Notes: generated from the letters alone by a model not told the origin. A DNA stretch of 64,000 nucleotides from Spirochaetia bacterium (GCA_963662795.1 OY759746.1:1088001-1152000), one strand, 5' to 3'. Counted from the first letter of the stretch, positions 36,041-61,771 are shown. Numbers and translations: made by a program.

Positions 36041-36107
36041 AAAAGGAGGGCACCCCTTATAAAGAGAAATGCCCTCTAAAACCAGCCTTGAATTCCGGAT
36101 TATAAAC

Positions 36108-37757
36108 TTATCTGGTAAGCCAGAGTATCCTGTCCGCAATATATGCTACATGTTCGTTTATCCTGTTAAAATAATTTATCAGGTCTAAATGGACAGACGA
36201 TGTTCCGATCGATTCTTTAAGCCCTTTCTGGAGTCTCTCTATATGAAGTCTTTTGAATCTTGTTTCATCAAGTTCTGCGTACTTTTCTCCGATCTTCTTT
36301 GCCGCAACCGAATCTTCATTAATAAGAGCTTCCACAAGTCTTTCTATATTTTCATTGACCTTTCCGTGAAGCTCCTTAAGTTCTTTAAGACCCTCAGCTG
36401 AAAAAGTCAGGTCCTGATCAATCATTTTTCTCGCCAGTACCATTATATTTTTATCAATCACATCCCCGATTGATTCAAGTTCATTTTCGATATACAGAAA
36501 ATTGATACTTCTCTTGGAGTCTTCTACTCCCATCTCCTTCTGGGATATTTTTGCAAGAAAGAGGATTATTGTCTTGTGGAGAAGATCAACCTTTGAGTCT
36601 GTATCACAGATTTCCCTTATTACTTTCGGGTCTTTTTTAATAAATGCAAGCTCAACCTTGCTGAACATCTCCTTGATAAGGTCCGCAACAACCAGAATTT
36701 CTTTTTTAGACATTTCAAGCGCGATTTCGACACTTCCGTCAATCAGCTGTTCATGGAGATATTTAACACTGAACGGTTTTTCACTTTCCTTCGGAGGAAC
36801 CATTTTCACAAACAAACCGACAATAAAATCAAGAAAAGGGATGATGATTATATGATTTATTATGGGCATGAATGTAAAACCTACAGCTATTTCCCTGGCC
36901 AGGCTGTCAGTATTCAACACTGTGGTTGTGAACCATTTAATCATCCATATGAAAAGACGCTCACCGTTAAAAGGAATTATCAGGAGAATATATACCCAGA
37001 TTACTCCTATTGCCTGAAAGAAAACATGTACGTAGGCAGATCTTTTTGCTTCCCAGTTAAGGGCCAGACTCCCGAGTACAGCAGTGATACATGTCCCTAC
37101 CGCAGCTCCAAGGTTTATAGGAACAGCCTGTTCAAGGGTAATTGTCCCTGCCATAGCCATCGCGATTGTAAGGCCGCTTGTCGCACCTGAAGACTGGATT
37201 ATCATTGTAAAGAAAAGACCAAGCAATATACCCAGGGCAGGTGTTTCAACCCGCATCATAAGATCCATAAAAGGCTTATATTCCCTTAACGGCTTTAAAG
37301 AGTCGGACATCATATTCATACCGAGAAAAAGAAGACCGAATCCAAAAATCGCAAGGGCTGTATTATTGCCTTTTTTGGTTTTTGCGACAAGCGATGTAAA
37401 AAAACCGCCCGCAATGATGATAGTCGCGAATTTTGATATGGAAGGGAACGCAATCAGATGGGCCAGAAATGTTGAACCAAGTTCAGATCCCAGTGTCACG
37501 GCAAGACTCTGCTGAAAAGTCATAAGCCCCGCCCCTACAAGCGCTGCCTCAAGCACTGTTGTTGCTGATGATGACTGATTTACCATTGTGACACCAAGCC
37601 CTGTCAGGTAGCCCCTGAACCTGCTTTTTGTAAGTGTCAGCATGACTGACTTCATTTTCTCGCCGGCGATTGAAGTCAGATTTTTATTCATGACTATCAT
37701 GCCGTAAAGAAAAACAGCAAGTCCTCCTATTAGAGTGAACAAATTCCAGATACTCAT
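36108..37757 (-). CDS. Na+/Pi cotransporter (NptA/YjbB family) with C-terminal PhoU-like domains
   Basis: Two QSS repeats (NQSSSATT, IQSSGATS), GAAVGTCITA, C-terminal ELESIGD and RINEH motifs. Confidence 0.92.
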   Translation of the reverse strand: MSIWNLFTLIGGLAVFLYGMIVMNKNLTSIAGEKMKSVMLTLTKSRFRGYLTGLGVTMVNQSSSATTVLEAALVGAGLMTFQQSLAVTLGSELGSTFLAHLIAFPSISKFATIIIAGGFFTSLVAKTKKGNNTALAIFGFGLLFLGMNMMSDSLKPLREYKPFMDLMMRVETPALGILLGLFFTMIIQSSGATSGLTIAMAMAGTITLEQAVPINLGAAVGTCITAVLGSLALNWEAKRSAYVHVFFQAIGVIWVYILLIIPFNGERLFIWMIKWFTTTVLNTDSLAREIAVGFTFMPIINHIIIIPFLDFIVGLFVKMVPPKESEKPFSVKYLHEQLIDGSVEIALEMSKKEILVVADLIKEMFSKVELAFIKKDPKVIREICDTDSKVDLLHKTIILFLAKISQKEMGVEDSKRSINFLYIENELESIGDVIDKNIMVLARKMIDQDLTFSAEGLKELKELHGKVNENIERLVEALINEDSVAAKKIGEKYAELDETRFKRLHIERLQKGLKESIGTSSVHLDLINYFNRINEHVAYIADRILWLTR

Positions 37758-37895
37758 TATTCTTCTCCTGTTGTATTAATTACGGAAACCCGGATTCCCG
37801 AATGTTTCACGATAAGCAAATTTCACTGATGCAAAACTCATAAATTTATATTGCATCTGAATTTTCAGTTTCTTAGGTGCTTTTAGAGCATGCAG

Positions 37896-38492
37896 CTAAA
37901 CTGCAGCACCAAGATTAATTTTTGTCAGTGAATTAAATATTCGTTCATTTATCTGGTTTAGTTTTTCAAAAAAATCCCAGTTTAATAATGAATTACGGCT
38001 GTCCTGATCCTGCCGGTTAAGTCTTAAAAACTCAACAAAGGATTTCTGCAGGTTTCTATTATCCGCAGATATTTCCTCAATAAACAATCTGCTGTCTGAA
38101 ACAGTACCCGGCAGGATCTCAGTAAAATATTTTTTTATTTTTTCAAGGATAAGGATTTCCTGTTTTAACAGTAAATCAAAAGAAATACGATTTCCGGCAA
38201 TCCTGATTTTTTCGGTAAAAATAACCATCTCAGAAAAAAGGGATTTTAATTCTGTTTCAATTGAAAAAAAATCTTTCCACCAGAAGGGAAGAATATAATC
38301 ATCCATTGAATTTACTACTGCATAAAAATATTCTGAAAACTCATTTTCATTACGTTCAAGCTCTTCAGCACTCTTGCCGGTATTCACACTGACAGCAAGC
38401 TGGATGAGCTTATTGAGAGAAGCTTCTGCTACTTCTTCAAGTTTTGCCTTTTTTCCAAATAGATTTTTTTCAAACGGTATATTGATTTTCAT
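37896..38492 (-). CDS. Helical protein, distant DUF47/PhoU-like paralog
   Basis: 198 aa, SD aggag; LFGKK..LEE N-terminus and 'YILPFWWKD' segment parallel DUF47 and the upstream ORF. Confidence 0.6.
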   Translation of the reverse strand: MKINIPFEKNLFGKKAKLEEVAEASLNKLIQLAVSVNTGKSAEELERNENEFSEYFYAVVNSMDDYILPFWWKDFFSIETELKSLFSEMVIFTEKIRIAGNRISFDLLLKQEILILEKIKKYFTEILPGTVSDSRLFIEEISADNRNLQKSFVEFLRLNRQDQDSRNSLLNWDFFEKLNQINERIFNSLTKINLGAAV

Positions 38493-38558
38493 ATATTCTC
38501 CTGATATTTTTGCAAATTATTCCGGCTTGTCCGGAAAGAAAAAGCTCCATAATATAGT

Positions 38559-38593
38559 GATAAATGCCGGATTTAACAAATCCGGCATTTATC
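38559..38593. repeat. Perfect 16-bp inverted repeat in intergenic region
   Basis: gataaatgccggattt-aac-aaatccggcatttatc. Confidence 0.85.
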
Positions 38594-38667
38594 GTACAGG
38601 AACTTACTCTATAGCTTTATCCGGCAAAACCGGCAAAACTCCATTACTTTATCCATCAAACCCATCG

Positions 38668-39312
38668 TCAAAGATTTGTAGCGATATAAATTTTCCCAAG
38701 TACACCCTGTATCTCTTCGTTTGATGAATTTATCTGTTCAAAAAGTTCAAGAATTTTCATTCTTGATCCTGGATCTCCGGATCTTTCTTCATAAATTGTG
38801 TTAAGCCTTGAAAAATATATTTTCATAAATTCTTTCATCGCATACTGGTTATTAACCATTATCTGATAAGCGTATTTTCTGTTTACCGAATATTCATTGA
38901 TAAAATTTACGATGTTACGAAGTATTTTTTTCTCATGCTCATAAAACGAAGCATAGGAATCTTCATTTTTATAAATCTGTATTTTATTGAACACCATTAC
39001 TATCTGATTCAGGAGCTTTCTTGTATAATCACTAATCAGGAGTAGCTCATTCCAGCATAAAGGCAGGTAGTGTTTCCTGTTAATAATTTCAACTATTTTT
39101 CCGGTTTGATTTTCCATCGCAGTTTCATAATCATATATTTTGTTTGCTGTGATGAACGGGTCAAAATCATTGCTGCTCTTTTCCATAATCCCGATTACAG
39201 ATAGAACAATATCAATATTCTCAGTTATAGATTTTTCCAGATCTGCCTTTTTTCTGAATATATTATTAAACATCTTTTTTTCCCTCAACAAAGTTATGCC
39301 GACCGAGTCCAT
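38668..39312 (-). CDS. Helical protein, distant DUF47/PhoU-like paralog
   Basis: 214 aa, SD ggagg (alternative start 39273); gapless manual alignment of IYDYE...RKHYLPLCWNEL with VHAAE...RKALIPGSRGDV of the DUF47 at 42935. Confidence 0.65.
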   Translation of the reverse strand: MDSVGITLLREKKMFNNIFRKKADLEKSITENIDIVLSVIGIMEKSSNDFDPFITANKIYDYETAMENQTGKIVEIINRKHYLPLCWNELLLISDYTRKLLNQIVMVFNKIQIYKNEDSYASFYEHEKKILRNIVNFINEYSVNRKYAYQIMVNNQYAMKEFMKIYFSRLNTIYEERSGDPGSRMKILELFEQINSSNEEIQGVLGKIYIATNL

Positions 39313-39342
39313 TTTTTTCCTCCAGTAAACTCATTTATCTAT

Positions 39343-39358
39343 TGCATAATCCGTGCCA
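39343..39358 (-). promoter_or_regulatory. sigma54 (-24/-12) promoter
   Basis: TGGCACGGATTATGCA: GG-N10-GC spacing exact, one mismatch to TGGCACG-N4-TTGCW; 30 nt before the ATG at 39312. Confidence 0.8.
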
Positions 39359-39520
39359 GAAAACAAAGAGTGACGTTTAATTTTTACCTATTTTATTTTA
39401 AATAATATAAATACTTACATAATAATGAGTTATAGAATTTATTAGTGTGTATACCTATCAATAATTATAATTTTGAATAAGAATGGTAAATTATGAAAAC
39501 ATGTTTAATAACACTGCAAT

Positions 39521-39558
39521 TGTAAAATTTCTTTTCATGCATGTAAAAAGAATATACA
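39521..39558. promoter_or_regulatory. Tandem enhancer-like (UAS) dyads for a sigma54 activator
   Basis: TGTAAAATTTCTTTTCA (39521-39537) and TGTAAAAAGAATATACA (39542-39558), TGT-N11-(A/T)CA, 21 bp apart. Confidence 0.6.
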
Positions 39559-39583
39559 CATAATGTTCACGCGATCTGCTTTT

Positions 39584-40984
39584 TCAGGTATCCCCGGATT
39601 CCTTCGTCTCTTCCGGCAGATTCATTTTTTTTGCAAGAGTAACCCTGCTTATACCGAGTATTTTAGCCATGGCTGACTTATTAAAATTCTGCTCCCGGCC
39701 TATCCTGTCTATCATTATTTTTTCCAGTTTGTCATACAGGAGCGGTAAAAGATTATCAGAAGTCCTGTGTTCATTACAAAAATAATTAACAGCCTTCTCC
39801 AGTAAATTCAGCGGCGGCATACTTACAAGCCGCACCTGCATATCATGCAGAGACAGGGATGGTCCCTGTGCGTTTATACATATACTTGTAAGCAGATTTT
39901 CCAGCTCTCTCACGTTACCAGGCCAGTCATACGCGGTAAATTCAGACATAAGATCACTGGCTATCGACGTAAATATCTTATTTAATTTATATGATGCATT
40001 CTTCAGGAAAAAATCAGCAAGCACCGGAATATCTTCTTTCCTGTCCCTCAATGGGGGAATTACAATTTTTGCAACATTTATCCTGTAATATAAATCTTCG
40101 CGAAAACGGCCTGTTTTAACCTCATCATGCAGGTTTCTGTTTGTCGCGGTTATTACCCTTGCCTTTAGTTTTATGTTTTTAAGGCCGCCCATCCGCTGAT
40201 ATTCCTTCTCCTGAAGTACCCTTAGAAGTTTTGTCTGAATCTGCAGCGGCATGTCGCCGATCTCATCCAGGAAAATTGTCCCCTCACCCGCTGCTTCAAA
40301 CTTGCCGATTTTAAGCGATACTGCGCCTGTGAAAGCCTGCGGCTCATGACCGAAGAGTTCATTATCAAGAAGGGATTCGGTCAGCCCGGAACAGTTCACC
40401 GCGATAAAAGGTTCATTTTTTCTGTTGCCGTTAAAATGCAGCGCCCGGGCCAGAAGTTCTTTCCCGGTTCCGCTCTCCCCTGTGATATGCACAACAACAT
40501 CATTATTAACAAGCCGTCCTACGGATTTAAATACATCCTGCATAAGAACCGAATTCCCGATAATTTTTTTCAGTTCATAATTTCTGATATTTTCAGATCG
40601 GATAGTGTTAACATATTTACTCAATTTTCTGGATTCGACAGCCCGTTTCGCCAGAATTGATATTTTATCAATATCAAGCGGTTTCTCTATATAATCATAA
40701 GCACCAAGTGAAGTTGCCTCAATTATTGTTTCAAAATTTCCATGCGCTGTAATCATGATAACCGGGACACCAGGGTCCAGTTTTTTTAGGGATTTCAGAA
40801 TGGCAAGACCGTCTTCACCCGGCATTCTGTAATCAAGAAACACAAGATCCACTTCACGGCTTGAAAAAATATCAAGACCTTCTTTACCGTTATATCCATT
40901 AAAAACTTCATGTTCACTGCTGAATAATTGAGTAAAGCTTTTCTGTATATTTTTATCATCATCTATAACAAGTATTGCCGCCAT
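39584..40984 (-). CDS. sigma54-dependent response regulator (NtrC/AtoC family: REC-AAA+-Fis HTH)
   Basis: IDDD/LDYRMPG receiver, GESGTGKE, ELFGHEPQAFTGA, FLDEIGD, WPGNVREL, AKILGISRVTL. Confidence 0.93.
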   Translation of the reverse strand: MAAILVIDDDKNIQKSFTQLFSSEHEVFNGYNGKEGLDIFSSREVDLVFLDYRMPGEDGLAILKSLKKLDPGVPVIMITAHGNFETIIEATSLGAYDYIEKPLDIDKISILAKRAVESRKLSKYVNTIRSENIRNYELKKIIGNSVLMQDVFKSVGRLVNNDVVVHITGESGTGKELLARALHFNGNRKNEPFIAVNCSGLTESLLDNELFGHEPQAFTGAVSLKIGKFEAAGEGTIFLDEIGDMPLQIQTKLLRVLQEKEYQRMGGLKNIKLKARVITATNRNLHDEVKTGRFREDLYYRINVAKIVIPPLRDRKEDIPVLADFFLKNASYKLNKIFTSIASDLMSEFTAYDWPGNVRELENLLTSICINAQGPSLSLHDMQVRLVSMPPLNLLEKAVNYFCNEHRTSDNLLPLLYDKLEKIMIDRIGREQNFNKSAMAKILGISRVTLAKKMNLPEETKESGDT

Positions 40985-40994
40985 ATCCAGCCCC

Positions 40995-42755
40995 TTAAAC
41001 AATTGGAATCTTATCACTGGTTCTGTAAGGGAGAATTACCCTGAACACAGTTTCATGTTTATTACTTTCAACCTGAATTGTTCCGTAGTGTCTTTCTATA
41101 ATCAATTTTGTTAACGCAAGACCTAACCCGGTACCATCTTTCTTTGTAGTGTAAAAAGGTTCGAATATTTTCCTTATATTTTCATCAGGAATTTCGCTTC
41201 CGGTATTTCTGAATTCCATGACAACGTTTGATTCCTTTATTTTAGTGGAGATATTAAGAAATCCTCCGTCAGGCATTGCCTGAATTGCATTGATTATAAA
41301 ATTTATAAAGCAAATACGTATTTTTTCTCCATCCAGATATACTGCAGGAAGTCTATTTTCAAGATTGCATTCAAGCTTTATATTCTGATGCTCAATATTA
41401 TACTTATACTGATTAACAATATTAAGCAGTATCGAATTAATATCATTTTTGGAAAAATGCATAGGCCCCGGTTTTGAAAACTCAAGTAAATCCTTTACAA
41501 GGTTATTAATTCGGTCAATTTCCTCGAGAATCGCGTTTACTTCCTGAATTCCTCCCTTATCAGAAAGATATCTGCTGCGGATTATCTGAGACATCATTTT
41601 TATTGAACTTAAAGGATTTCTGATTTCATGGGCAAGACCGGCCGACAGTTGTCCGACTGCCGCAAGTTTGGCAGACTTTATCATATCATCCTGAAGTTTT
41701 ATTATCTGTTTATTGTACTTGTGAATCTTTCTGGACAGGTTATTGATGCTTTCCGCTATTATCCTGAATTCATCATTGGATTTTATGTCAACAATAGGAT
41801 CATCACTGCTGAGGCTGAAATTATTAATACCGTCTATGATTTTGCCGAGAGATGTATTTATGTTATTCGCAAGAACCAGATAAGCTAAAAGGGAAAGCGT
41901 GAAACCTATCATAATCATCAGGAAAAGCAGATTACCCATATAAGAAAAATACTGATCGTTGCTTTTTTCCTTAATAAACAGATTGATTGCTCCCCAGTAC
42001 CTGTCCTCTTCCGAGTATAGGGCTTTAAGCATAAAATAGTATTTATTACCCTCAATTTCCTCTTCAAATACAAGTCTGTCTTTTTCCTGTAACTGCTTAA
42101 TCCTGTGATCTTCAATTATTTCAAATCCCTGATACGTAGAGATAATTTTGCTGTTTCCCCAGTAAATACCGTTATCCAGCCCTGTAAGTTTTCTCATATT
42201 TTCTACCAGGTCTTTAGAGAAAAGCGATCCAATCATTAAAAGGCTTATAATCTCCCCGTTTTTCTCCACAGGGGCTACCGCACGTATGGCTAACCCTGAT
42301 TTTCCGCTTTCATAGCTTACAATATTTTTACCGGCAAGCCCTGCCTTTACTATGTTCTGGTCTATTTTCAGGTCACCGCTTTTTGCCGGGTCATGCCCTC
42401 TGATGAGAACTGTTCCGTCAGTCTTTTCAACTTCTATAATATCAAAAATTCCCATCCTGTAAAAATTGCTTAACCGCTTTTCAAGAAGATCAAGGTTGCG
42501 GTTCGATATAAGATCAATTATTTCACTGTCTTTTGATAAGGTTTTAACCGCATTCAGACAGTCATCTTCCTTGAACATAATTTCGTTATAGTAAGCGGTT
42601 ATGCTGTCTTCAAGCCTGACGATATAGGCCTTCTTTACTGAGCTTTTTATCAGCCAGTAACCTATTGAAACAGAAGTAATTGTCGTTACAAGAATTATAA
42701 AAATAAATGAGATGAATATTTTAATATTAAGTCTGTACCTGAGAAAGTAACCCAT
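40995..42755 (-). CDS. Membrane sensor histidine kinase (Cache-like sensor, HAMP, HisKA, HATPase)
   Basis: Two TMs around a Cache-like region (LAIRAVAPV), H-box AHEIRNPL, NAIQAM, FEPFYTTK, GTGLGL. Confidence 0.93.
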   Translation of the reverse strand: MGYFLRYRLNIKIFISFIFIILVTTITSVSIGYWLIKSSVKKAYIVRLEDSITAYYNEIMFKEDDCLNAVKTLSKDSEIIDLISNRNLDLLEKRLSNFYRMGIFDIIEVEKTDGTVLIRGHDPAKSGDLKIDQNIVKAGLAGKNIVSYESGKSGLAIRAVAPVEKNGEIISLLMIGSLFSKDLVENMRKLTGLDNGIYWGNSKIISTYQGFEIIEDHRIKQLQEKDRLVFEEEIEGNKYYFMLKALYSEEDRYWGAINLFIKEKSNDQYFSYMGNLLFLMIMIGFTLSLLAYLVLANNINTSLGKIIDGINNFSLSSDDPIVDIKSNDEFRIIAESINNLSRKIHKYNKQIIKLQDDMIKSAKLAAVGQLSAGLAHEIRNPLSSIKMMSQIIRSRYLSDKGGIQEVNAILEEIDRINNLVKDLLEFSKPGPMHFSKNDINSILLNIVNQYKYNIEHQNIKLECNLENRLPAVYLDGEKIRICFINFIINAIQAMPDGGFLNISTKIKESNVVMEFRNTGSEIPDENIRKIFEPFYTTKKDGTGLGLALTKLIIERHYGTIQVESNKHETVFRVILPYRTSDKIPIV

Positions 42756-42817
42756 ATTGGATTTTATGATATTTGAGAATAAATGTATATATTTCTGTTA
42801 ATTCACACGATCAGACT

Positions 42818-42890
42818 CTAACACAATTTTAAAGATCCTAACTGAATTTTAACATTTTTTATAGACATATATCAATCTATCCGCTATAAT
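42818..42890 (+). promoter_or_regulatory. sigma70 promoter with upstream pho-box-like direct repeats
   Basis: TAGACA-N17-TATAAT (42862-42890); upstream CTAACA-N5-TTAAAG and CTAACT-N5-TTAACA. Confidence 0.55.
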
Positions 42891-42934
42891 CGTTCAATTT
42901 TACAGGAACAAATTTTAATGAAGGAGTAGACTCT

Positions 42935-43579
42935 ATGGCTAAATTGTGGAAAAAACAGGAATCAGTTTTTTCAAAGATTAAGATTTATTTTGAAAAAGCG
43001 GATTTGACACGCGATGTATTTAAAAAAACTATTGCAGATCTAATCAGACAGACACCTGACGTCGATTTTGGAGAGGCAGTGGAACTGGTACATGCGGCAG
43101 AACATGAAGCAGATATCAAGAGAAGGGAAGTTATTACGGAACTTTACCGGAAAGCTTTGATACCGGGATCCAGAGGTGATGTTCTTGGGCTGCTGGAAAA
43201 TTTTGATCAGCTTCCCAATACTTTCCAGAAGATATGCAACCAAATATACTTCCAGAATGTAGTATTTCCTGAAAACTTCAGGGAAAGAATCATTGACCTT
43301 ATAAATGTAAATATTGATGCATATAATCTCACCAAAGATGCAGCATTCTGTCTTTTTGATGAGGCGGATCTGGTAAATAAAACTGAACTCATTTGCGAAA
43401 AGGAAAGAGAATCAGATGCAAGGGAAAGAGGACTTACACGTGATATCTTTAACACGGATATGGAACTTGCCCTTAAAATGCTTTACAAGCAGATTATCAT
43501 TTCCATAGGTAATATTTCAGACATAGCAGAAGATATTTCAGACAGGGTTGAAATAGCTGTCATAAAAAGGAGACTATAA
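42935..43579 (+). CDS. DUF47 (TIGR00153) phosphate-transport regulator, Pit accessory protein
   Basis: EHEAD..RR, LIPGSRGD, ERESD, ISDIAED; directly upstream of PiT. Confidence 0.9.
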   Translation: MAKLWKKQESVFSKIKIYFEKADLTRDVFKKTIADLIRQTPDVDFGEAVELVHAAEHEADIKRREVITELYRKALIPGSRGDVLGLLENFDQLPNTFQKICNQIYFQNVVFPENFRERIIDLINVNIDAYNLTKDAAFCLFDEADLVNKTELICEKERESDARERGLTRDIFNTDMELALKMLYKQIIISIGNISDIAEDISDRVEIAVIKRRL

Positions 43580-43582
43580 TAA

Positions 43583-44524
43583 ATGTTCAGGCTGTTAAGC
43601 GGAATATTTATGGGCTGGTCTCTAGGTGCCAATGATTCCGCTAATATATTTGGCACGGCTGTCTATTCAAGAATGATCAGGTTCAAGACAGCTTTATTCT
43701 GGCTTTGTATTTTTATTGTTTTAGGGTCAATGCTGCAGGGCGCGGCAGGGATGCATACATTAAGCGGTCTCGTTGTGCAGAATATGAATACCGCTTTTAT
43801 TACAGCGTTTGCTGCTGCATTGACTGTTACTGTTATGACGTTTTATGGTCTTCCGGTATCAACTTCCCAGGCAATGGTCGGGGCGATAATGGGGATTGGG
43901 GTTGTAATCGGACAGATTGATTTTTCAAAACTTCCAAAAGTTTTTGCATGCTGGGTTGGTACACCGGTAGGATGTGTTATTGCAACAGTAATACTGTATC
44001 CGCTTCTGAGTAAGCTTTTTTCAATTCTTAAAATGAATATATTCAGGCAGGATTCTGTACTCAGATGGGGACTTATAGCAGTAGGCTGTTACGGGGCATA
44101 TTCTTTGGGAGCCAATAACGTAGCTAATGTCACAGGCATATACATCGAAACAGGTCTTCTTAATGTAACCCAGGCGCTGATTCTCGGCAGCCTCAGCATC
44201 TGTATCGGGGCAATTACCTACAGCAGAAAAGTAATGATGACAGTCGGGGAAAAGCTTGTAAGACTTGACGCCTTCAGCGCATTCGTTGCTGTTCTCTCAA
44301 TGTCGATAATATTAAATATTTATGCAGTAGTAGGCGTACCGGTTTCTTCGTCACAGGCGATAGTCGGAAGTGTACTAGGTATAGGTATTGTTAAAGGTGT
44401 TAAAACCATCAACATAAGGACCTTAATAAATATTGTAATAGGATGGCTGACAACTCCAGTAATTGCAATGATAGTATCAATTGCATTATATGTCGGAGCA
44501 ATAAAAATACTTGGGATAAACTGA
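43583..44524 (+). CDS. Inorganic phosphate transporter, PiT family
   Basis: GANDSAN and GANNVAN signature motifs, PVSTSQ and PVSSSQ repeats. Confidence 0.93.
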   Translation: MFRLLSGIFMGWSLGANDSANIFGTAVYSRMIRFKTALFWLCIFIVLGSMLQGAAGMHTLSGLVVQNMNTAFITAFAAALTVTVMTFYGLPVSTSQAMVGAIMGIGVVIGQIDFSKLPKVFACWVGTPVGCVIATVILYPLLSKLFSILKMNIFRQDSVLRWGLIAVGCYGAYSLGANNVANVTGIYIETGLLNVTQALILGSLSICIGAITYSRKVMMTVGEKLVRLDAFSAFVAVLSMSIILNIYAVVGVPVSSSQAIVGSVLGIGIVKGVKTINIRTLINIVIGWLTTPVIAMIVSIALYVGAIKILGIN

Positions 44525-44539
44525 TTATCATTTTAATAC

Positions 44540-44575
44540 ATAAGCCTGCGGCTGTTTACCGGAGGCTTATTTTTT
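44540..44575 (+). terminator. Intrinsic terminator after PiT
   Basis: ataagcct...aggcttat stem followed by T-run. Confidence 0.7.
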
Positions 44576-44591
44576 GCTACCTTAAAAATAT

Positions 44592-45086
44592 ATGAATGAA
44601 GAAATAATCCAGCTTTGCGACCTGAAGGGAACCCCCTGCGGCACCTCTCCCAGATCAGTCTGCCACAAAGATCCGTCACTTATACAGATGGTAGTTCACC
44701 TTATGGTAATGAATTCAGGAGGCAGCTTTTTTCTTCAAAAAAGGGCTTTTTCCAAAGAGGCCTTTCCCGGATACTGGGACACATCTGTCGGAGGGCACGT
44801 AAGCGGCGGGGAAAACCTGATGCAGGCGCTGAAACGCGAGGCTGATGAGGAGATAGGGATTGAATTAATCCATGCAGATTTTGTCTTTAAAAAGCTGTAT
44901 TTTATGGAAAATGAAACAGAGATGTCTTTCTTTTATAAAACTGTTTATGACGGTCCTTTCAGGATAGACAATGACGAAGTCACAGAAGGACGCTTCTTTA
45001 CAGCCGGAGAAATAAGTCCCCTGATAGGCACGAATATATTTACTCCAAGCCTTGAAAACGGGTTTTTGGCTATTTCAGGCAATTAA
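44592..45086 (+). CDS. NUDIX hydrolase (IDI/YfcD-like)
   Basis: LQKRA...PGYWD, Nudix box GGHVSGGENLMQALKREADEEIG. Confidence 0.9.
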   Translation: MNEEIIQLCDLKGTPCGTSPRSVCHKDPSLIQMVVHLMVMNSGGSFFLQKRAFSKEAFPGYWDTSVGGHVSGGENLMQALKREADEEIGIELIHADFVFKKLYFMENETEMSFFYKTVYDGPFRIDNDEVTEGRFFTAGEISPLIGTNIFTPSLENGFLAISGN

Positions 45087-45988
45087 AACATAGGAGTCGG
45101 ATAAATATTTGACCACTGATTAACAAGGTCCAGAAAATCCTTGAGCGGTTTTGAAAAATACTTGTCGCTGTGATATATCATGTAATACTTTCTCCTAAAA
45201 TTTTTGTCCTCAACCGGAACAGCGACAAGCCGGCCGCTGGCAACTTCTTCCGTAACCATATTATTGGATATAAAAGCAACACCCATTTCATGCTGGACAA
45301 GCCGCTTTATTGCTTCACTGTTTGATATTTCATAATTCACATTCACATCAATTTTATACTTTCTTATAAAACTGTCTGTTATTTTCCTGGTCACAGACCC
45401 TTTCTCGTGAAGAATCAGGTTGCATCCCTGGAGGTCGGCAATCTCGAGCCTGTCCCGTCTGGTCAGCGGGAAAGCAGGGTTTGCGATCAGGACAATATTG
45501 TCCTCAAGAACTTCATGCACAGATATTTTGGGATTCTGGATCGGTTTTGATATGAATCCTATATCATTATTCAGGTCAGCTGTATTCTCAATAATACTGT
45601 CATTATGCCCAATCATGACTGAAATATTTATATCCTGATTGGTTCTTTTATAGTATTTAATGATGTAGGGAATATAATAGGCCCCGAAGCTTTCACAGGA
45701 AAGGATATTGATTTTACCCTTGCTGTATTGCTGAAAATCCCTGATACTTTCCTCAGCCTGGCTTTCCATATCAAATATTTTATCTGCGATACTGTATAAA
45801 TGCTCGCCGGCATCAGTCAGAACAACTTTTTTACCGATAATATCGAGGAATTTAAGGTCATAATGACTCTGGAGCTGTTTAATCTGTTTGGTAACAGCAG
45901 GCTGAGTGATGCAAAGAACATCAGCGGCTTTTGTGAGACTTTTATACTTTGCTGTATAATAAAATGTCTTTAAATGATAGAGATTCAT
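45083..45988 (-). CDS. LysR-family transcriptional regulator (CysL/CmpR-like)
   Basis: HTH SLTKAADVLCITQPAVTKQIKQL, EKGSVTR, SEAIKRLV. Confidence 0.95.
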   Translation of the reverse strand: MNLYHLKTFYYTAKYKSLTKAADVLCITQPAVTKQIKQLQSHYDLKFLDIIGKKVVLTDAGEHLYSIADKIFDMESQAEESIRDFQQYSKGKINILSCESFGAYYIPYIIKYYKRTNQDINISVMIGHNDSIIENTADLNNDIGFISKPIQNPKISVHEVLEDNIVLIANPAFPLTRRDRLEIADLQGCNLILHEKGSVTRKITDSFIRKYKIDVNVNYEISNSEAIKRLVQHEMGVAFISNNMVTEEVASGRLVAVPVEDKNFRRKYYMIYHSDKYFSKPLKDFLDLVNQWSNIYPTPMF

Positions 45989-61755: not shown

Positions 61756-61771
61756 TGCAATTATTATGCCA
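61756..61771 (-). promoter_or_regulatory. sigma54 (-24/-12) promoter
   Basis: TGGCATAATAATTGCA, close match to TGGCAC-N5-TTGCW; 34 nt before the start codon. Confidence 0.8.

Follow-up and report, generated by a model that had tools for sequence, protein, structure and literature searches.

A candidate sigma-54-dependent two-component system for phosphate transport in Spirochaetota

Gene content and promoter architecture of the locus

We analyzed a stretch of 64,000 nucleotides (nt) from a Spirochaetia bacterium (GCA_963662795.1, OY759746.1:1088001-1152000; hereafter the window), which contains a cluster of genes that an initial annotation, made from the sequence alone, had described as a candidate sigma-54-dependent phosphate-homeostasis system. 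Genes for a sensor histidine kinase and an NtrC-family response regulator (RR) are followed on the same strand by two small open reading frames (ORFs), named here sA214 and sB198, and by a gene for a sodium/phosphate cotransporter with PhoU domains (NaPi-PhoU, or NaPi). A DUF47 gene and a gene for a PiT-family permease (DUF47+PiT) are divergent from the kinase gene. Pfam and NCBIfam searches recovered every gene of the earlier inventory at the same positions (Table 1).

The kinase matches dCache_3 (PF14827) at 40.6 bits (cut-off 25.7), together with HisKA and HATPase_c. Two hydrophobic segments flank about 240 of its residues, so that the Cache domain faces outward. The HAMP domain attributed to the kinase earlier was not borne out: Pfam detected none at an expectation value (E) of 1e-3 in the window protein, and two orthologs show a weak HAMP match below the cut-off. 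There was likewise no Pfam match to a PAS domain in the window kinase, and the phoR model reached 91.5 bits against a cut-off of 334. In the regulator, Pfam recognizes Response_reg (E 7.8e-27), Sigma54_activat (E 1e-64), an AAA lid and HTH_8 (E 3.9e-8), and the Walker A motif reads GESGTGKE; the PhoB model covers only the receiver domain (55.7 bits, positions 3-126). As its orthologs align only from residue 12, the regulator likely starts at the ATG at 40984. The NaPi protein combines two stretches of Na_Pi_cotrans (PF02690, E 1.2e-49) with two of PhoU (PF01895, E 9.1e-17), scores 170.9 bits with NCBIfam NF037997 (cut-off 50) and is encoded by a single-copy gene in this genome, as judged by tblastn.

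We found that the sigma-54 promoter proposed earlier for this operon, TGGCACGGATTATGCA, is retained in all 24 orthologous spacers between the regulator and the next gene, across eight families (6/6 loci of the same family and 18/18 other loci with the spacer available). The loose sigma-54 pattern accounts for 23 of these elements, and one variant (L131) was judged by eye; in the DNA of the surveyed loci this pattern has a background of 0.053 per kilobase (kb) per strand, which predicts about 0.013 matches by chance in a 250-nt spacer. By itself, the motif shows no enrichment within the window (19 matches with at most two mismatches vs 27.9 expected); the weight of the element comes from its position and conservation. 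A GGAGG ribosome-binding site follows it 5' of sA214. The window carries dyads some 165-215 nt upstream of the -24 element, and the orthologous spacers contain one or two, with half-sites near TGTAAA/TTTACA, 100-216 nt upstream of -24. At least one dyad fitting the pattern is present in 19 of the 23 spacers scanned and both dyads in eight; the other four show related half-sites by eye. A genome-wide scan with the dyad pattern derived from this locus detected no site beyond it.

Sigma-54 itself, whose presence the initial annotation had left to be confirmed, is encoded in the genome (rpoN; Sigma54_DBD 187.3 bits, above the cut-off). We determined that the genome encodes 13 full-length sigma-54 activators and contains 21 sigma-54-like sites by a stricter pattern. 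Since at least seven of the 13 activators have a predicted sigma-54 site no farther away than about 2.6 kb, local pairing of activator and promoter is the rule in this genome. A second good sigma-54-like element of the window, TGGCATAATAATTGCA at 61756-61771 (-), is located 34 nt upstream of a 206-amino-acid (aa) ORF.

Table 1. Features of the locus, with positions counted from the first nucleotide of the window
Feature	Position	Strand	Basis or remark
Terminator-like hairpin, 12-bp stem, T-run tail CTTTTTTATC, 3' of the NaPi gene	36046..36076	-	Operon end mark
Na/Pi cotransporter (NptA/SLC34 type), 549 aa, two C-terminal PhoU domains	36108..37757	-	Pfam, NCBIfam; last gene of the sigma-54 operon
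sB198, 198-aa ORF, predicted PhoU/DUF47-fold accessory protein	37896..38492	-	Paralog of sA214
Hairpin, 16-bp stem, between sA214 and sB198	38559..38593	-	Inferred function: possible partial terminator or attenuator
sA214, 214-aa ORF, six-helix PhoU/DUF47 fold	38668..39312	-	First gene 3' of the sigma-54 promoter
Sigma-54 promoter TGGCACGGATTATGCA, -24 TGGCAC / -12 ATGCA	39343..39358	-	30 nt upstream of the sA214 ATG
Tandem 17-bp dyads TG(T/A)-N11-(T/A)CA, predicted activator site	39521..39558	-	Directly 3' of the RR stop
NtrC-family response regulator: REC, AAA+ sigma-54 activator, HTH_8	39584..41017	-	Pfam
Sensor histidine kinase: transmembrane segment TM1, dCache_3 (~residues 37-278), TM2, HAMP-like linker, HisKA, HATPase	40995..42755	-	Pfam and hydrophobicity
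Sigma-70-like promoter 5' of the kinase gene, TTGATA-18-TAAAAT, 10/12 positions	42846..42875	-	Consensus match only
Sigma-70-like promoter 5' of the DUF47 gene, TAGACA-17-TATAAT, 11/12 positions	42862..42890	+	Consensus match
DUF47/PhoU_div (PitR-like) protein	42935..43579	+	Pfam E 4.1e-23; paired with PiT
PHO4/PiT-family permease	43583..44524	+	Pfam E 1.4e-53

The classical phosphate system is also present in this genome. PstS, PstC, PstA, PstB and PhoU are all encoded and exceed their NCBIfam cut-offs, and the best models for one kinase and regulator pair are PnpS/PhoR and PhoB, both below the cut-off. The sigma-54 circuit would thus be an addition to the classical system and not its replacement; of the "alternative circuit" first suggested, the sigma-54 wiring distinct from PhoBR stands, while the idea of substitution does not. 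The pstSCAB-phoU operon directly follows genes for phosphoenolpyruvate mutase and phosphonopyruvate decarboxylase, i.e., phosphonate biosynthesis (G000:C1:586745-594281, outside the window, where G000 is the genome of the window).

Orthologous loci across Spirochaetota

Using a profile of the sensor domain alone as the query, we found 22 strong sensor orthologs among 401 genomes of the class (21 at E<=1e-85 and one split by an insertion), which fall into families f1, f2, f9, f29, f30, f35 and f58 (f, family; L and G below denote loci and genomes). A sample of 401 genomes of the phylum added three more, all in family f68, giving 25 ortholog-bearing genomes in eight families of Spirochaetota. 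Six weak matches (E 1e-16 to 1e-24), which we regarded as different dCache kinases, were not counted. The flanking DNA was typed by tblastn and Pfam; the loci of G010, G015, G378 and G497 end at contig edges before any transporter, which leaves 21 informative loci.

A phosphate-family transporter lies in the sigma-54 operon 3' of the regulator in 18 of these 21, so that conservation of the neighborhood, which the initial annotation had named as a way to check its proposal, turned out stronger than expected. NaPi-PhoU genes occupy the operon in 10/21: in f1 they are accompanied by sA and sB, by sA alone or by neither, and in f2, f9 and f35 they come after an ORF of 228-274 aa. In locus L019 the sigma-54 promoter stands directly 5' of NaPi, with no small ORF between. 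PiT operons make up another 8/21 (f29, f58 and f68) and consist of an sA-like gene (202-203 aa), a PHO4/PiT gene (334-338 aa; PHO4 E 1e-73 to 1e-79 for the genes scanned) and, in the operons tested for it, DUF47. These sigma-54-driven PiTs score 62-96 bits with PitA vs 37-52 bits with CysP, both below the cut-off. One further locus (G298) has an sA-like gene and then nrdD, with a PiT-DUF47-PiT arrangement 4-7 kb away on the opposite side of the kinase. One ortholog locus is flanked by genes for polyphosphate kinase and H+-pyrophosphatase. Linkage within the family of the window says little, because the entire neighborhood is syntenic there.

The NaPi (SLC34-like) and PiT (PHO4) proteins belong to unrelated families whose common trait is phosphate transport, and the two-component system is linked to both. 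In a maximum-likelihood tree of 20 kinases, a branch with 100/100 support has NaPi-linked kinases on either side, the clade of the window grouping with PiT-linked clades, and the starred branches of this tree require the transporter type to have changed at least twice. Hence the two-component system was kept while its transporter was exchanged; as the root of the tree is arbitrary, no direction is claimed for the swap.

Several of the surveyed loci carry insertions. The kinase ortholog of G011 (L017:9345-10160) is split after about residue 163 by some 700 bp, which hold a 271-aa ORF on the opposite strand without a Pfam match and may represent a mobile insertion that inactivated the sensor. 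In G456 (L143:10600-16700), an insert of about 6 kb between the regulator stop and the dyads contains a duplicate of the 3' end of the regulator gene, along with a TauE-like gene and a weak match associated with DDE transposases. In turn, an insert of about 850 bp in G497 (L145:1250-2250), again between the regulator stop and the dyads, carries a nucleotidyltransferase gene and a 148-aa ORF. The interval between regulator and dyads looks like an insertion hot spot. The regulator and PiT genes of G008 (L016) were recovered in several tblastn pieces, which could reflect frameshifts or assembly errors.

Sensor domain, PhoU-fold proteins and neighboring transporter genes

The AlphaFold2 (AF2) model of the sensor domain has a predicted local distance difference test (pLDDT) score of 84.4 and shows a double PAS-like fold carried by a long N-terminal helix. 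Foldseek returned 190 matches at E<=0.001, with mostly dCache and single-Cache sensor domains at the top of the list; the dCache domains matched, at template-modeling (TM) scores of 0.4-0.6, are LuxQ, DctB, TlpA, CitA, Tlp3 and PctA, the closest being LuxQ, DctB, CitA and amino-acid chemoreceptors. When solved structures were searched with the sensor profile, no match had an E below 0.039. We observed that, across 20 orthologs, 33 positions of the sensor domain do not vary, among them R119, H121, D128, K130, Q133, E149 and R158, and that they are the same in NaPi- and PiT-linked kinases. Most of them fall in the first PAS-like, membrane-distal module of the model, the module in which dCache domains usually bind their ligand. 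That the conserved sensor module is the same for both kinds of target fits a signal linked to what the two transporters share.

The sA214 and sB198 proteins are paralogous (27% identity, E 7e-10). Neither matches a family of Pfam or NCBIfam, Pfam (including PF01865 and PF01895) giving none even at E up to 10, and BLASTP produced no meaningful alignment of either with the DUF47 protein of the window. Homologs are scarce: an index of 5.8 billion proteins holds four clusters, and a profile search detected 32 cluster representatives at E<=0.001 among 1.84 billion. Within the family, sB198 is present in three of the five relatives that retain the DNA downstream of the RR gene. The AF2 model of sA214 (pLDDT 85.5, predicted TM score 0.82) consists of six long helices, as in a fold built of two three-helix repeats, and its top Foldseek match is 3L39 (BT4638, deposited as PhoU-like; TM 0.76-0.78, E 4.7e-5). 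VIA-align gave Z 21.0 and a root-mean-square deviation of 2.4 Å over 192 residues with this structure, and Z 17-18 with eight PhoU or PhoU-like structures, values far above the level that the tool calls common for helical bundles. By hhalign, the sA family aligns with DUF47 over 157 columns (62% probability, E 7.7e-5); its L-P-x-x-W falls on the P-x-x-R-x-D of DUF47, with P84 kept and W87 in place of Arg, and the DUF47 motif itself is absent. An Atlas feature score of 0.89 to DUF47 clusters served as a lead only. On these comparisons, we regard sA and sB as a divergent PhoU/DUF47-fold family from which the DUF47 signature was lost. What the initial annotation called two DUF47-like genes is thus upheld at the level of the fold and not as membership of the Pfam family.

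Proteins like sA are encoded upstream of NaPi-PhoU or PiT in f1, f29, f58 and f68. The sA position in f2, f9, f30 and f35 is taken by the ORFs of 228-274 aa, which have no Pfam match; hhalign links them with the sA family at 87% probability (E 3.8e-6; smaller first alignments gave only 52%), and they are probably remote relatives of it, judging from these profiles. A complex predicted for sA214 with two copies of the cytoplasmic part of the kinase scored 0.00, which counts as evidence neither way.

The initial annotation listed the divergent DUF47+PiT pair among the two Pi transporters flanking the system; its inclusion in the circuit is not supported. No sigma-54 element was found in the spacer 5' of the pair, which has a sigma-70-like promoter; the pair is absent from this position in one genus that keeps the kinase, the regulator and NaPi; and the best NCBIfam model for its PiT is the CysP sulfate permease (125 bits, cut-off 400) vs 43 bits for PitA. 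For these reasons it is probably not a target of the system. In four families, CysP-like DUF47+PiT pairs recur at a distance of a few kb from the system, and hence may be functionally associated with it; none of the pairs of this type near the system in other families is preceded by a sigma-54-like site. A Pho-box-like repeat 5' of the DUF47 gene was considered and dropped, as it is not conserved in relatives. Three relatives share an ATAAC-N5-GTTAT palindrome 5' of DUF47. A gene for a LysR-type regulator adjoins the CysP-like pair in two families (window 45083-45988 (-); L082:15903-16835) and may control it.

Genes for NaPi-PhoU occur in other settings as well. In L093, L098 and L099, all of f35, a different kinase, a sigma-54 regulator and a sigma-54-like promoter are followed by tctC-tctB-tctA and then by a close NaPi-PhoU gene; a comparable TctC-type unit, also with a sigma-54 site, is found near G000:C1:999850 in the genome of the window. 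In G004 (C4:14038-19636) and G010 (C66), three to four NaPi-PhoU paralogs stand in tandem, with 40-68% identity to the protein of the window; G004 has no ortholog of the sensor kinase.

Proposed circuit, competing readings and known systems

In the circuit that we propose, the membrane kinase would read an extracytoplasmic signal through its dCache_3 domain and phosphorylate the NtrC-type regulator, which would bind the tandem dyads next to its own gene and activate sigma-54 RNA polymerase at the -24/-12 promoter. Transcription would yield sA214 first and then, by read-through, sB198 and the Na/Pi cotransporter, and the hairpin 3' of sA214 may lower this read-through. The PhoU-fold proteins would most likely gate the transporter and/or report the status of transport to the kinase, by analogy with PhoU and PitR elsewhere. 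The wiring, from the system through sigma-54 to the phosphate-transporter module, is well supported by the comparison of orthologous loci and seems very likely; a role in phosphate transport appears likely; and we consider it rather probable, on the evidence of the sequence, that this module is switched on by a sigma-54-dependent two-component system dedicated to it. The signal is the least certain part of the explanation. Our best guess, a tentative one, is external inorganic phosphate (Pi) or a close oxyanion, with a substrate-induced secondary transporter that would complement the starvation-induced Pst; Pi itself as the ligand of the kinase is suggested with the same reserve. A bolder version, which we hold to be somewhat doubtful, is that dCache_3 binds orthophosphate directly and induces secondary Pi transporters via sigma-54 when Pi is available, with sA and sB closing a feedback loop on the kinase or the transporter.

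Several observations weigh against the proposed circuit. The canonical sigma-54 contact loop is GAFTGA, and that of the regulator reads QAFTGA, with the FTGA core kept and the first residue different. No phosphate sensor is among the closest Foldseek matches of the sensor model, whose dCache relatives are generic, and hence no ligand can be read from the model. The surveyed loci come from related genomes and are not independent samples, and in 2/21 of them, both of f30, the system is accompanied only by an uncharacterized 260-aa ORF, with no transporter in the operon. The linkage is also weak in reverse. Across the class there is a clade of NaPi-PhoU genes 51-76% identical to that of the window, and among 20 close-clade loci outside its family (G164, G180, G117, G095, G042 and the tandem paralogs of G004 and G010 being left out), the system lies beside only four. 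Another three are preceded by TctCBA together with a different pair of kinase and sigma-54 regulator, and 13 have neither system; nine of the 13 are within or adjoin sugar or organophosphate clusters (ABC permeases with GDPD and PfkB; DeoR with DHH and GHMP kinase; HAD phosphatase; ABC sugar transporters), the remaining four having other or unidentified neighbors. With the system at only four of 20 loci, NaPi-PhoU is a module that serves under several regulators, often together with phosphate-ester enzymes. Finally, the cargo and the direction of transport are insecure, because YjbB of Escherichia coli, which has the same architecture, is reported to be insufficient for Pi import (PMC13170248).

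The same wiring could answer a cue other than phosphate, such as a carbon source (a carboxylate or another), pyrophosphate, an organophosphate or the ionic conditions, e.g., pH, Na+ or divalent cations, with co-induction of the Pi transporter to meet the metabolic demand for phosphate. The nearest solved sensor folds, which include the carboxylate sensors DctB and CitA, agree with this, and close NaPi-PhoU paralogs elsewhere end catabolic operons (kinases, phosphoesterases, TctCBA), so that the transporter is often co-expressed with carbon metabolism and not under the control of Pi. Yet, the operons under the system described here carry PhoU-fold proteins and a Pi-type transporter and no catabolic genes, and their conserved sensor module is the same for NaPi and PiT targets; a non-phosphate cue seems unlikely to us, if worth serious attention. 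More unlikely is a release valve, in which an excess or imbalance of Pi would induce mainly efflux transporters gated by PhoU-fold proteins. YjbB has been implicated in Pi export, and polyphosphate kinase flanks one ortholog locus. The architecture that NaPi shares with YjbB and the toxicity of excess Pi, as stated in PMC13170248, point in the same direction, whereas the NptA of Staphylococcus aureus, with the same PhoU-domain architecture, is described there as an importer, and a sequence does not tell in which direction a transporter works.

That the transporters and the circuit serve a different oxyanion, e.g., arsenate or sulfate, we consider improbable to a high degree: the PiT family does include the sulfate permease CysP, which is the best model for the window's own PiT, but the PiTs driven by sigma-54 score higher with PitA than with CysP, the Na_Pi_cotrans family and the PhoU/DUF47 partners are associated with phosphate, and no ars or cys genes are found within the operons. 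It would be more surprising still if the genes were adjacent with no regulatory link, the promoter being served by another activator or inactive. The 13 full-length activators of the genome leave room for such an arrangement, as does the genome-wide dyad scan, which relied on a pattern taken from this locus; against it, the order of regulator, dyads, sigma-54 element and operon is kept in 24/24 spacers of eight families despite the change of transporter.

The proposed two-component circuit resembles several known systems. Closest in layout is DctB/DctD-dctA, which serves C4-dicarboxylate sensing in rhizobia and Vibrio and in which a double-Cache kinase and a regulator of the NtrC family likewise drive an adjacent secondary transporter from a sigma-54 promoter that has sites upstream of it; structures of the DctB sensor (3BY9 and 3E4O, TM 0.52-0.59) are among the top fold matches. 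However, the sensor of the window shares the fold only (8-10% identity), its target is Na/Pi or PiT and not DctA, and its operon opens with PhoU-fold proteins. The DctA transporter also acts as a co-sensor for the DctB kinase, which might serve as a model for how the PhoU-fold proteins work. With PhoR/PhoB-PstSCAB-PhoU the system has in common that a two-component system is coupled to the transport of Pi and to an accessory protein of the PhoU fold, but its regulator is of the NtrC type and acts with sigma-54, in contrast to the OmpR-type winged-helix regulator with sigma-70, and its kinase has an extracytoplasmic dCache_3 domain of about 240 aa and no PAS match, where a kinase of the PhoR kind has a cytoplasmic PAS domain and no large periplasmic sensor. 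In Salmonella PgtB/PgtA-pgtP, an external solute likewise leads, through a membrane kinase and a regulator of the NtrC family, to induction of a transporter related to phosphate; that transporter is an organophosphate/Pi antiporter, and the system employs one more sensor protein, PgtC. Membership of the window regulator in PgtA was considered and rejected (168 bits vs a cut-off of 650). E. coli YjbB and S. aureus NptA resemble the NaPi protein in architecture, with Na_Pi_cotrans repeats followed by PhoU domains, and to our knowledge their regulation has not been described as sigma-54-dependent.

According to PMC13170248, S. aureus PhoU, PitR and NptA's PhoU domain each modulate a phosphate-responsive two-component system and perhaps the importers too, and each Pi transporter family has a PhoU-like partner of its own (PhoU/Pst, PitR/PitA and, in NptA, its PhoU domain). 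The window also has a PitR-like protein with PiT and an NptA-like protein with PhoU domains. Yet, the S. aureus proteins act on the OmpR-type PhoPR, while sA and sB would form a further, stand-alone clade, encoded by the first genes of a sigma-54 operon. We found neither a sigma-54-controlled Pi-transporter system nor a Pi-binding Cache kinase in open-access papers and preprints, searched without supplements, in agreement with the initial annotation, which knew of none with this layout. In a paper on the sigma-54 regulome of Desulfovibrio vulgaris the word phosphate is absent, and passages of a regulator-mapping paper on the same species assign phosphate to PhoB only. The parts are thus known (the sigma-54 two-component system, the dCache sensor, the PhoU fold, and the NptA and PiT transporters), and the combination, the lineage of the sensor and the sA family are undescribed in the literature searched.

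Since the system was found, within our search, only in uncultured or little-studied Spirochaetota, its immediate reach is limited. Control of phosphate in bacteria is taught as a single circuit, PhoR/PhoB with Pst and PhoU, in which the kinase senses Pi indirectly. The locus would add another class of circuit, in which an outward Cache sensor is combined with sigma-54 enhancer binding and whose output over eight spirochete families is conserved as a PhoU-fold protein with a Pi transporter from either of two unrelated families. If confirmed, it would provide a candidate direct receptor for Pi or an oxyanion in the form of a soluble domain of 240 residues, a new family of PhoU-like proteins whose clean genetic context would suit work on the function of the PhoU fold, and an example of modularity between regulator and target, in which one switch operates swapped transporters. 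Direct binding of Pi, if true, would make this the first histidine kinase known with a dedicated extracytoplasmic Pi receptor, and would constitute a second, substrate-induced arm of phosphate homeostasis in bacteria beside the starvation-induced PhoBR/Pst arm.

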